In this document: piece by piece, positions 5,140-15,321 of the stretch
Position numbering within the stretch: the stretch's first letter is position 1
Layout of the letters: the number at the start of each line of letters is the position of its first letter
Source of the DNA: Gemmatimonadota bacterium
Lineage (GTDB): Bacteria > Gemmatimonadota > Gemmatimonadetes > Palauibacterales > Palauibacteraceae
NCBI GenBank assembly: GCA_039590285.1
Contig: JBDHFS010000001.1
Location: forward strand, 1-50,204
Direction of reading: 5' to 3'
DNA: 50,204 nt
The notes under the pieces: generated by a model
What the model was told of the DNA's origin: nothing
Databases searched by the model: none
Seen by the model: only the letters and a program-made list of their open reading frames with translations
Made by a program: the position numbers and the translations under genes

Positions 5140-5193
5140 TCATCCTGGAGACCTGTGCGATTCTCCTGTCCTGCCTTCCGGGGGGCCGGTGGC

Positions 5194-13348: not shown

Positions 13349-15321
13349 CCGGAGTAGCGGGCCGGGTCGCTGGATTGCTGCTCCTGCTCGTGCCTTTCGT
13401 TCCGCTCCGGACCCTGTTCGGGGACATCCCCGGGGCCACGGGCCTCGTGACACCCGGCGAGTGGCTTCTCGGCCTGTTCATCTTCGGTGTGGTCGCCGTT
13501 CTGGCGGCCAGATTCATCCCGGCATCGGCGCCGCCACGGGGGCTCGATCTCCTTGGACATCCGGGCCCCTCCGCGCGGGTCCTCGTGCTCGGCGGTTTCG
13601 TCCTCCTCGGCCTGCTCCTGGTGGCCGTGTCGACTCTGGCGTTCGCCCGCCGCCCCCTTCTGATCGACAGCGTCGTTCACGCTTTTCAGGCCCGCATCTT
13701 CGTGTCAGGCGCCCCGTTCGCGCCCGCTCCGCCTGATGAGGCGTTCTTCGCCGTCCAGCACATGGTCGTGGATGGCGGGCGCTGGTACTCCCAGTATCCT
13801 CCCGGCCACGCCGGAATACTCGCGATCGGTCTTCGGGTGGGAGCGATGTGGCTCGCGCCCGTCGTTCTTTCACTGGGCACCACCGGCTTCCTGTACGCAT
13901 TCGCGGCAAGGGCCTACGATCGCTCGACGGCGCGCCTGACGCTCCTCGTCCTTGTCGTGGCGCCTTTCTTCTGGTTCATGGGCGCCAGCCACATGAACCA
14001 CGTGTCCAGCCTGTTCTTCGTGTCCGCCTGCCTGATGTTCGTGGCCTGGTGGGAAGCGGACGGCGGCTGGGTACGCCTTCTGCTGGCTGGCCTCGCGATA
14101 GGCGGAGCCTTCCTCAGTCGACCGCTCACCGCGGTGGCCGTGGGCGCCGTTTTGGCATTTCCCGTTCTGCGCGTGTCCCGCGAACGCAGGAACCCGGGTC
14201 CGATCGTCGCGGGGCTCGCGGGGGCGCTGGCGGCCGTCTCGCTCTACCTGGCCTACAATGCCGCGACGACCGGCGATCCGTTCCTCTCCGGATACGTGAG
14301 ATTATGGGGTGAGAATCACGGCCTCGGCTTTCACGCCACGCCATGGGGTGACGTCCACACGCCAATCGCGGGCCTCAGGAACGAGCTCACCGATCTTTCC
14401 CTCCTGGCGGCCTTCGCGTTCGAATGGCCCGTGCCCGCGCTGCTTCCCATCGGAGCGTGGCTGACCGCGGGCTGGGCCGCGCGCCGCTGGGATCGCCGCC
14501 TCACGGCGTGCCTGCTTGCCCTGCCGGCGGCCTATCTGTTCTACTGGCACCGGGACGCCTTTCTCGGCCCGCGGTACCTGTACTCCGGCCTCGCGTTCAT
14601 GGCTCCCCTGACCGCTCGGGCGATCCTGGACGGGGCTCGGCGCCTGGCGGAGAGACCCGTGTGGTCGGGCTCGGGACTGACCCGGGTGCCCGCGGTCTCG
14701 GTGGCCGCGATCCTGCTCGTAACGAGCGTGCTGTACGCCGGGCTCTATGCAGCGCCCCGGCGGTTCACCACGTATCGAACGGGCCTCGCTTCCATGAAGC
14801 TCGACCTCCAAACCCGCGCCGCGGCCTCCGGTATCTCGGACGCCATCGTCTTCGTCCCCGTGAGCTGGGGGAATCGGCTCCTGGCGCGCATGCGCGCCGC
14901 CGGAGTTCCGGCATCCCTCGCCGAACGAGTCTATCGCGCGGTCGACCACTGCGCGCTGGAGCTGCTTCTCACGGACGTCGAGACGGAGGAGTGGTCCGCC
15001 GACCGCCTCACGGAGGGCCTCTCGAATCTACCCCCGGCGGCGAGCCTGGGAGCCGCCAGTCCGAACGGCGATCCCACACTTCGCCTCGCGCCGGATCGGG
15101 CTGTCCGCCCCGAATGCGAAGACGAGCTGAGGTACGACGCTGCCGGCTACGGGAACTTCACTCCTTTCCTGGCCGACCTGGATCCCGACCTCGGGGGGTC
15201 GCTCCTCGTCGCCCGCGATCTCCGCGGGCGCAACGCCCGACTCCAGGCCCTGTATCCATCCCGCCCGGCCTTCGTGTACAGGGCGGGTCGGTTCGTTCCT
15301 CTCGCACCGGCGGCTGATTGA
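13345..15321 (+). CDS. polytopic membrane protein, ArnT/PMT-like GT-C glycosyltransferase candidate with a C-terminal soluble domain
   Basis: GTG 13345 (GTGA overlap) preceded by GAGGAGG (13331-13337). 658 aa. A loop after the early TM segments has LLIDSVVHAFQARIF (acidic residue plus aromatic residues, as in the paralogues). Many TM segments and a soluble tail of about 200 aa. Confidence 0.55.
   Translation: MTGVAGRVAGLLLLLVPFVPLRTLFGDIPGATGLVTPGEWLLGLFIFGVVAVLAARFIPASAPPRGLDLLGHPGPSARVLVLGGFVLLGLLLVAVSTLAFARRPLLIDSVVHAFQARIFVSGAPFAPAPPDEAFFAVQHMVVDGGRWYSQYPPGHAGILAIGLRVGAMWLAPVVLSLGTTGFLYAFAARAYDRSTARLTLLVLVVAPFFWFMGASHMNHVSSLFFVSACLMFVAWWEADGGWVRLLLAGLAIGGAFLSRPLTAVAVGAVLAFPVLRVSRERRNPGPIVAGLAGALAAVSLYLAYNAATTGDPFLSGYVRLWGENHGLGFHATPWGDVHTPIAGLRNELTDLSLLAAFAFEWPVPALLPIGAWLTAGWAARRWDRRLTACLLALPAAYLFYWHRDAFLGPRYLYSGLAFMAPLTARAILDGARRLAERPVWSGSGLTRVPAVSVAAILLVTSVLYAGLYAAPRRFTTYRTGLASMKLDLQTRAAASGISDAIVFVPVSWGNRLLARMRAAGVPASLAERVYRAVDHCALELLLTDVETEEWSADRLTEGLSNLPPAASLGAASPNGDPTLRLAPDRAVRPECEDELRYDAAGYGNFTPFLADLDPDLGGSLLVARDLRGRNARLQALYPSRPAFVYRAGRFVPLAPAAD

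Follow-up and report, generated by a model that had tools for sequence, protein, structure and literature searches.

We analysed the first 50,204 nucleotides of contig JBDHFS010000001.1 from a Gemmatimonadota bacterium (assembly GCA_039590285.1); this whole stretch is referred to as the window. Its type IV pilus locus carries, between the pilin gene pilA and the remaining pilus genes, a block of six genes (G1 to G6, window 5155-15321) that code for a polyprenyl-phosphate glycosyltransferase of family GT2 and for polytopic membrane proteins of the GT-C class of glycosyltransferases (GT-Cs). We propose that this block is a pilus-dedicated system that O-glycosylates the Ser/Thr-rich pilin step by step in the periplasm, with a polyprenyl-phosphate-linked sugar as donor and with the acceptor named from gene neighbourhood, and we put the probability of this reading at roughly 60%. 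Pilin is the most likely acceptor because all the related Gemmatimonadota genomes that we examined have the block in this place, between pilA and the other genes of the pilus. An initial annotation of the window had described an extracytoplasmic glycosylation set made up of a GtrB-type GT2 and several GT-Cs, and Pfam profiles, matches to solved structures and fold matches all agree with that description.

Linkage of the block to the pilin gene

We scanned a single genome for each GTDB species and added contig look-ups, which yielded 83 loci (designated by L numbers), and mapped the window proteins onto them by tblastn. The 80 loci retained from the scan include none from cultured genomes. Thirty Gemmatimonadota loci were spanned, meaning that the sequence covers pilA through fimT or pilM, and in all 30 of these G1, G3 and G4 lie between pilA and fimT or pilM. 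All six genes are present in 15 spanned loci, only G1-G4 in five, all but G5 in four, all but G6 in three, and all but G2 and G5 in the remaining three, so that G5 is absent from 12 of the 30 and G6 from eight. Because the identity of G3 falls to ~39% across Gemmatimonadota loci, the arrangement of pilA and the block is old. The six genes had been described as inserted into the pilus locus, and this part of the initial annotation fails: G+C is uniform and the arrangement is ancestral in the lineage. A recently inserted island is ruled out by the even G+C throughout the region and by synteny that is kept across the phylum. The block is a conserved feature of its lineage and no local oddity.

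The linkage is found outside Gemmatimonadota in a rearranged form. G3-like genes also occur in genomes labelled Binatia, Deltaproteobacteria, Thermodesulfobacteriota and Eisenbacteria, where a pilin gene is followed by a G1-like YfhO gene, and the G3-like gene and a GT2 gene converge on the pair from the other strand; in L060, for example, the order is pilB-pilC-pilS/R-pilA-YfhO, facing methyltransferase-GT2-PMT_2. G3-like genes that lack a G1-like neighbour, as in Glassbacteria and others, have no pilin gene close by. We also scanned metagenome contigs, seeding the search with the Binatia-type G1 family and recognising pilin open reading frames (ORFs) by the prepilin cleavage motif. A pilin ORF stands directly upstream on the same strand in 28/32 testable contigs whose YfhO protein is at least 40% identical to the Binatia-type query, versus 8/33 contigs for YfhO relatives at 24-29% identity, and pilin motifs are rare elsewhere in the scanned contigs. 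In many Binatia-type contigs a G3-like gene, a GT2 gene or both are found nearby, and the G3-like gene, a methyltransferase gene and a GT2 gene recur downstream. Pilin linkage follows G1. That the neighbourhood is conserved despite rearrangement is good evidence for a functional link between block and pilin, and the 30/30 Gemmatimonadota loci together with the 28/32 Binatia-type contigs make the association much stronger than the initial annotation could tell from the window.

Several related loci carry additional candidate tailoring genes. A gene for an S-adenosylmethionine-dependent methyltransferase lies between G5 and G6 in L003 (14311-15075) and L005 (14204-14971), L004 has a sulfotransferase gene with a second GT2 and another GT-C (16385-20801), and the Binatia-type module of L060 includes its methyltransferase gene (8399-9157) upstream of its GT2. 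Taxon labels of metagenome-assembled genomes need care in such surveys: L058 and L064 are labelled archaeon, and L012, labelled Akkermansiaceae, has a pilus and glycosyltransferase locus typical of Gemmatimonadota, its pilin being 92% identical to that of the window, which suggests a binning or labelling error.

The gene pilA (4692..5063, + strand; Pfam N_methyl and NCBIfam pilin models) encodes the major type IV pilin, which has a mature length of 116 residues, is free of cysteine and is rich in Ser and Thr in its C-terminal half. Orthologous pilins are highly conserved, with 115-116 mature residues, no cysteine and ~18-25% Ser+Thr, and in their C-terminal half Ser and Thr are concentrated in conserved tracts (consensus FTTSTGI-x-ISASAASAGGY-x-ITASH-x-ASGNT...VGTGSS). 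These tracts are a plausible target of O-glycosylation. A motif (I/L/V)-T-A-(S/T)-H in the same half is common to most YfhO-adjacent Gemmatimonadota and Binatia-type pilins (window, L002-L077 and L054-L082), and it could be structural or could mark a site of recognition or glycosylation. Whereas the window has one pilA copy, four in tandem precede G1 in some Gemmatimonadota loci (L037, 2012-4771; L071, 3375-5620).

Upstream of pilA, a sigma-54 -24/-12 element read from the sequence, cGGCACGcgggTTGCc (also given as CGGCACGCGGGTTGCC), lies at 4582..4597 on the + strand, 95 nucleotides before the pilA ATG, and the same element is found 103-133 nucleotides upstream of pilA in 27/35 related loci. 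Downstream of pilA, inspection and folding of the sequence revealed a hairpin (5102..5141, + strand) that is rich in G+C, has a short T run and is terminator-like or attenuator-like. A simple terminator scan of the window did not flag this hairpin because its T run is short. A hairpin stands at the equivalent place after pilA in nearly all related loci (L002-L077), and since the stem sequences differ while pairing is kept, a conserved terminator or attenuator between the pilin and glycosyltransferase genes is suggested. The locus order given initially, with pilS-pilR, sigma-54 promoter, pilA, hairpin, block, fimT-like, pilV-like and further pil genes, is confirmed by Pfam and by our reading of the sequence.

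The glycosyltransferases of the block

All six genes lie on the + strand and are chained by five 4-nucleotide start/stop overlaps (GTGA 7575, ATGA 9217, GTGA 10824, TTGA 11792 and GTGA 13345), exactly as first annotated. Each of the five membrane proteins has 8-12 hydrophobic segments and a large first loop. Acidic residues claimed for that loop in every one of them could be traced as invariant positions just after the first transmembrane segment in four (D43 of G1, D38/E39 of G3, E57 of G5 and D108 of G6), and the orthologues of G2 retain a D-rich stretch, 'DYGIASDVGNYFY'. We place these first-loop residues on the extracytoplasmic side.

G1 (5194..7578, + strand) is predicted from Pfam, AlphaFold and Foldseek to be a YfhO-type GT-C with ~12 transmembrane segments, a C-terminal periplasmic domain rich in beta structure and one last transmembrane helix. 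Its ORF is open from GTG 5155, and the start is most likely ATG 5194, 131 nucleotides after the pilA stop codon, because database protein P0121 has 794 residues compared with 807 residues from GTG 5155. G1 matches Pfam YfhO (PF09586) with 43.8 bits against a cut-off of 28.5 in an alignment that takes in only model positions 764-831 of 835, at the C-terminus; a PF09586 match is precomputed for nearly all G1 homologues. For the N-terminal core it is the modelled fold, and not the Pfam model, that points to a GT-C. The AlphaFold model of G1 has a mean local confidence (pLDDT) of 89.3 and a predicted template-modelling score (pTM) of 0.90, and its significant Foldseek matches are all GT-C enzymes, namely AftD (1.2e-9), ArnT (2.5e-5; TM-score normalised to target 0.52-0.56), STT3, PglB, EmbC and Pmt4. 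Loop 1 contains the invariant residues R42-D43...P46...F48...P50-M51-K52 within F-x-R-D-I-x-P-F-F-Y-P-M-K, and the corresponding motif of the Binatia-type homologues, F-F-R-D-L-x-P-Y-F-Y-P-M-R, is shared between the Gemmatimonadota and Binatia-type lineages.

G3 (9217..10827, + strand) is a PMT_2-type GT-C by Pfam, orthologue alignment, AlphaFold and Foldseek, with an invariant loop-1 motif G-x-T-W-D-E-P-x-Y. The sequence WDEPHYF occupies residues 37-43, and W37, D38, E39 and P40 are invariant in 15 orthologues. G3 scores 41.3 bits with Pfam PMT_2 (PF13231), whose gathering threshold of 26.1 bits is passed by the 3' part of G2, by G3 and by G6. Structures were predicted for G1 and G3; the G3 model has a pLDDT of 80.2, and its significant Foldseek matches comprise only GT-C enzymes (STT3 2.7e-8, ArnT 4.3e-8, PglB, AglB, ALG12/ALG9, AftA and Pmt4). 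The modelled C-terminal domains of both G1 and G3 hold many beta strands. These profile and structure comparisons back the GT-C membership proposed for the membrane proteins, as well as the more specific proposal of one YfhO-like protein (G1) and two PMT-like paralogues (G2 and G3), of which G3 bears WDEPHYF.

G5 (11792..13348, + strand) is a polytopic, GT-C-like and lineage-variable protein with weak similarity to GT87: it scores 25.1 bits with Pfam GT87 (PF09594) against a cut-off of 25, and among 14 orthologues GT87 matches four, PMT_2 one and STT3 one. Comparison with the G3 family by hhalign gives a probability of 92.8% (E 4e-7). G5 also weakly matches NCBIfam models for 'cell surface glycopolymer formation', and by these profile comparisons it would be the weakest GT-C case among the membrane proteins. 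G6 (13345..15321, + strand) is a likewise lineage-variable PMT_2-type GT-C with ~10 transmembrane segments, which scores 40.3 bits with Pfam PMT_2, shows a weak NCBIfam LA_3751/LA_3752 match and relates to the G3 family with an hhalign probability of 60.6% (E 8e-5). Among PDB sequences, profiles of the G3, G5 and G6 families had no match. None of the six proteins matches a Wzy_C domain in Pfam or NCBIfam, and on this ground a PglL/TfpO-type system was rejected.

Because G1, G5 and G6 show no mutual BLAST relation, the block holds four different GT-C families, and several distinct families could mean several classes of acceptor. This is one point in favour of a general periplasmic system that O-glycosylates many Ser/Thr-rich envelope proteins, with pilin as one client or the most abundant one, as with Pgf; another is that streptococcal Pgf and PgtC2 modify many membrane-associated proteins (PMC12041528). 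The placement of the block between major and minor pilin genes in 30/30 loci suggests specialisation instead, and we hold such a general system to be quite unlikely.

G4 (10824..11795, + strand) is predicted to be a polyprenyl-phosphate glycosyltransferase, a GT2 of the GtrB/ArnC/PgfS type with C-terminal transmembrane helices (Pfam, structure-sequence matches and NCBIfam). It scores 101.9 bits with Pfam Glycos_transf_2, its residues 4-303 align with residues 28-328 of Synechocystis GtrB 5ekp (E 5e-79), and further matches are to ArnC (3e-50) and DPMS 5mlz (3e-14). Among NCBIfam models PgfS, the GT2 encoded in the protein-glycosylation operon of Streptococcus mutans, scores best (234 bits versus an equivalog cut-off of 500). 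Hydrophobic segments fall at 218-283 and a DGD/DLQD motif is visible in the sequence. The near-full-length homology to GtrB and the position of these segments uphold the earlier call of a GtrB/ArnC-type GT2 with C-terminal transmembrane helices, and by these scores G4 appears closer to GtrB and PgfS than to ArnC. The polyprenyl-phosphate-linked donor predicted for the GT-Cs is suggested by one feature, the adjacency of this GtrB-type GT2.

G4 also bears on an alternative in which pili need a non-protein glycan of the envelope, such as lipopolysaccharide or lipid A, an exopolysaccharide or a peptidoglycan-linked polymer, which the block would decorate or build in the manner of GtrABC, CsbB/YfhO or ArnC/ArnT; the block would then stay in the locus for co-regulation only. 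G4 matches both GtrB and ArnC, teichoic acids are glycosylated by YfhO enzymes (PMC12041528; see also PMC5836110), G5 weakly matches the glycopolymer models, and the hairpin parts the block from pilA. Set against this, G4 is nearer GtrB and PgfS than ArnC, the linkage tracks the pilin gene in two lineages with different gene orders, and the window contains no polymer-synthesis, export or Arn pathway genes. On balance we regard a non-protein acceptor as unlikely. An Arn-type lipid A aminoarabinose pathway in particular was rejected, given the same affinities of G4 and no arnA/B/D-like genes in the window.

G2 (7575..9220, + strand) is a PMT_2-type GT-C and G3 paralogue, identified by Pfam PMT_2 on its 3' part (39.8 bits) and by orthologue alignment, and is 28-30% identical to G3. 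It is disrupted in the window. No single ORF covers 7575-9220: the frame from 7575 stops at 8225, and the remaining codons, up to 9220, are in a different frame. Compared with five orthologues, 40 nucleotides are absent at ~7967, with a loss of ~13 residues and a shift of frame; G2 orthologues in relatives are intact, at 555-566 residues. The bases flanking the gap (window 7940-8000) resemble a short direct repeat, TGGGCGCG, so that either genuine slippage or a collapse during assembly could explain the gap. No exact copy of the junction turned up in the metagenome collection, and the one contig whose G3 sequence is identical, L084, does not extend to the deletion site and has a split G4 of its own. 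As read here, G2 would be a pseudogene or an assembly artefact, and the genome would thus have four intact GT-Cs. The count of five GT-C-like membrane proteins first given is therefore right for the genes present, and has to be lowered for those apparently intact.

Glycosyltransferase genes split without sequence loss are seen in related assemblies, namely L002 ~8900 (G2), L036 ~10800 (G3) and ~15740 (G6), L045 ~6560 (G6), L070 ~8890 (G2) and L084 1524-2521 (G4). Unlike the 40-nucleotide gap in the window, these are probably single-base assembly errors and not pseudogenes.

The frameshift in G2 and the repeated loss of G2, G5 and G6 are points for a linkage that is historical, in which the proteins are non-catalytic or play an unrelated part (pilus-assembly accessory, membrane scaffold) or the block is decaying in this genome. 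This seems to us very improbable, as sequence divergence of 25-50% has left the acidic motifs of loop 1 and many further positions unchanged, G1, G3 and G4 are intact here and kept in all 30 spanned loci, and the models of G1 and G3 are confident GT-C folds.

Proposed pathway and relation to known systems

In the pathway that we propose for pilin glycosylation, transcription of pilA would be driven by PilS/PilR and sigma-54, and the hairpin after pilA would probably keep glycosyltransferase expression far under the pilin level, via partial read-through or a separate promoter. By homology, G4 would move one sugar from a nucleotide sugar to polyprenyl phosphate (undecaprenyl phosphate) at the cytoplasmic face, and a flippase encoded elsewhere would bring the lipid-linked sugar to the periplasmic face. 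G1, the GT-C encoded next to pilA in all 30 spanned loci, could then pass the sugar to Ser or Thr of PilA, in its globular C-terminal half, at a stage when the inner membrane still anchors the pilin, as suggested by gene neighbourhood and the streptococcal YfhO precedent. G3 (with G2, where intact), G5 and G6 may extend or branch the glycan sugar by sugar, or may serve other sites or the minor pilins. The variable genes G2, G5 and G6, together with the methyltransferase, the sulfotransferase and the extra GT2 and GT-C of some loci, would diversify the glycan between lineages. With G2 inactive, the glycan in the window's genome would lack the contribution of that enzyme.

Several points weigh against this pathway or narrow it. 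The acceptor, whether pilin, minor pilins, PilQ or another envelope molecule, is assigned wholly from gene neighbourhood. Flippase and sugar-nucleotide genes are not nearby: neither the window nor those related blocks that were examined contain a GtrA-like flippase gene, and the window, the remainder of which is housekeeping genes and pilD, has no nucleotide-sugar genes. For the window, the initial annotation had noted both absences. The conserved and strong hairpin between pilA and G1 speaks against simple, equal co-transcription with the pilin. Within G1, the Pfam YfhO match spans only the C-terminal 68 residues, and the loop-1 motif is RD, where PgtC2/PgfM1 and TfpW are reported to have DXD or DDX. 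The core consists of G1, G3 and G4, with G2, G5 and G6 dispensable, so the five-enzyme aspect does not belong to it. The count of independent phyla is approximate owing to the uncertain taxon labels of metagenome-assembled genomes. Pairs of a YfhO protein and a GtrB-type enzyme also modify non-protein polymers such as lipoteichoic acid, wall teichoic acid and O-antigen, and polysaccharide genes can adjoin pilA without acting on pilin, as in the Geobacter xap cluster.

Pilin glycosylation influences pilus function, surface properties and phage resistance, and two routes are known: en bloc transfer by PglL or TfpO, and the action of a single GT-C, TfpW. TfpO/PilO and PglL resemble the block in being encoded at or near pilin genes and in yielding O-glycosylated pilin, but they are of Wzy_C type, and what they transfer is an oligosaccharide already assembled on undecaprenyl diphosphate. 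In Pseudomonas aeruginosa, the GT-C TfpW, whose gene follows pilA, builds up oligomers of D-arabinofuranose on the group IV pilin (bioRxiv 10.1101/2020.04.19.049825). It shares with the block, for which these features are predicted from the genes, a polytopic GT-C directly after pilA, periplasmic action on pilin Ser/Thr and a polyprenyl-phosphate monosaccharide donor (bioRxiv 10.1101/2020.04.19.049825); TfpW does not draw on a cytoplasmic en bloc oligosaccharide and neither would the block, and donor-synthesis genes may lie elsewhere in the genome. However, TfpW acts as one multifunctional enzyme, marked by DDX in loop 1, an Emb-like proline motif and a C-terminal TPR domain, whereas the block has three to five GT-Cs (YfhO, PMT_2 and GT87-like) and an adjacent GtrB-type GT2, with RD (G1) and WDE (G3) in loop 1. 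The TPR hallmark of TfpW is not seen in G1 and G3, whose modelled C-termini have beta strands and are not all-helical; it is these motifs and domains, and not a sequence comparison, that set the block apart from TfpW. DprE1 and DprE2 serve the D-Araf donor of TfpW, and the window has no DprE-like genes.

A functional precedent for G1 is streptococcal. In GtrB/PgtC2, and in PgfS with PgfM1/PgfM2, a GT-A enzyme is paired with GT-Cs of the YfhO family, which act outside the cytoplasm and O-glycosylate proteins in regions rich in Ser/Thr (PMC12041528). The Pgf (PgfS/PgfM1/PgfE/PgfM2) and GtrB/PgtC2 systems share with the block a GtrB-type GT-A that makes an undecaprenyl-phosphate sugar, a YfhO-family GT-C and more than one GT-C per operon, and the Pgf operon adjoins some of its adhesin substrates as the block adjoins pilA (PMC12041528). 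They differ in having Gram-positive hosts and in modifying adhesins and membrane proteins, not pilins, and the block adds PMT_2 and GT87-like enzymes relative to Pgf. The block also scores far below the NCBIfam equivalog cut-offs for Pgf, with PgfS reaching 234 of the 500 bits required and PgfM1 20.6 of 1400, and there is no epimerase gene in the window.

Two further groups follow a comparable logic. In actinobacterial protein O-mannosylation, Ppm1 makes the polyprenyl-phosphate sugar, a Pmt GT-C initiates and a GT87-type enzyme elongates. The block departs from this scheme in that G3 and G6 match PMT_2 rather than canonical PMT with MIR domains, and G4 is GtrB-like and not Ppm1/DPM1-like (DPMS 5mlz, 3e-14). 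The three-component systems GtrA/GtrB/GtrC, CsbB/GtcA/YfhO and ArnC/ArnEF/ArnT likewise couple a GtrB-type GT2 to a GT-C with a polyprenyl-phosphate monosaccharide donor (PMC11127046), but they act on O-antigen, teichoic acids or lipid A, whereas the block encodes no GtrA-like or ArnEF-like flippase, has several GT-Cs per GT2 and lies in a pilus locus.

By these comparisons, the block would work like TfpW and like Pgf/PgtC2, and is a member of neither. Extracytoplasmic protein O-glycosylation by GT-Cs from polyprenyl-phosphate sugars is already known, and both conceptual precedents exist; the novelty lies in how the families are combined, in how many GT-Cs there are, in the setting within a pilus locus and in a clade of pilin-linked YfhO proteins found across several mostly uncultured lineages. 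Our search of the literature library available to us found no paper that joins YfhO or PMT_2 enzymes with type IV pilins and none that describes a Gemmatimonadota pilus locus; the initial annotation likewise knew of no characterised type IV pilus system that uses PMT/YfhO-type enzymes in such numbers. Protein O-glycosylation of the YfhO type, however, has a precedent in streptococci (PMC12041528), of which the initial annotation took no account.

We tentatively extend the proposal to a scheme that we consider possible rather than probable. In this scheme, one clade of YfhO-type GT-Cs would be a dedicated pilin O-glycosyltransferase in Gemmatimonadota, in the Binatia-type lineage and in others, which, together with a PMT_2 GT-C, a GtrB-type GT2 and up to three further GT-C families, would build an oligosaccharide stepwise on the pilin in the periplasm from polyprenyl-phosphate monosaccharide donors. 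This would be a third route beside PglL/TfpO and TfpW, with gain and loss of G2, G5, G6 and the methyl- and sulfotransferase genes leading to glycan diversity between lineages. If true, YfhO-type protein O-glycosylation, so far shown in streptococci, would extend to diderm bacteria and to pili; a substrate would be assigned to a large unannotated YfhO/PMT_2 clade in abundant, mostly uncultured soil and sediment phyla; and the loci with G1-G4, with or without G2, G5 and G6, would form a natural series for studying how GT-Cs cooperate on one protein acceptor.

Flanking pilus genes and other features of the window

The window has a G+C content of 67%, and the proteins most closely related to its own all belong to metagenome-assembled genomes of Gemmatimonadota. 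The + strand order around the block is an Rrf2 regulator, pilS, pilR, pilA, the six glycosyltransferase genes, GspH/FimT-like, pilV-like, pilM, pilN, pilO, (pilP), pilQ, aroC, aroK, topA and trmFO. The pilS-like sensor histidine kinase gene (1208..3037, + strand; Pfam PAS, HisKA and HATPase_c) is syntenic in relatives, and is followed by a gene for a pilR-like sigma-54 activator (~3077..4448, + strand; Pfam Response_reg, Sigma54_activat and HTH_8) whose ORF can be extended upstream to 2916. Downstream of the block lie two minor-pilin genes (15375..16339, + strand; Pfam GspH and N_methyl), one FimT/GspH-like (15375-15854) and one pilV-like (15851-16339), and then the assembly genes pilM, pilN, pilO, (pilP) and pilQ (16362..20979, + strand; Pfam PilM_2, PilN, PilO and Secretin with AMIN).

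A 540-residue ORF at 43763-45385 on the - strand has coding-like third-position G+C, no Pfam match and an unusually high second-position G+C (0.59). A second sigma-54 activator is encoded at 31538-33139, the ~130 N-terminal residues of which match no receiver domain. The prepilin peptidase gene pilD (46949..47728, + strand; Pfam A24_N_bact and Peptidase_A24), whose product processes pilin, lies ~30 kb from the pilus cluster and has as its neighbours a SpoU-type rRNA methylase gene and a thiD-like kinase gene.

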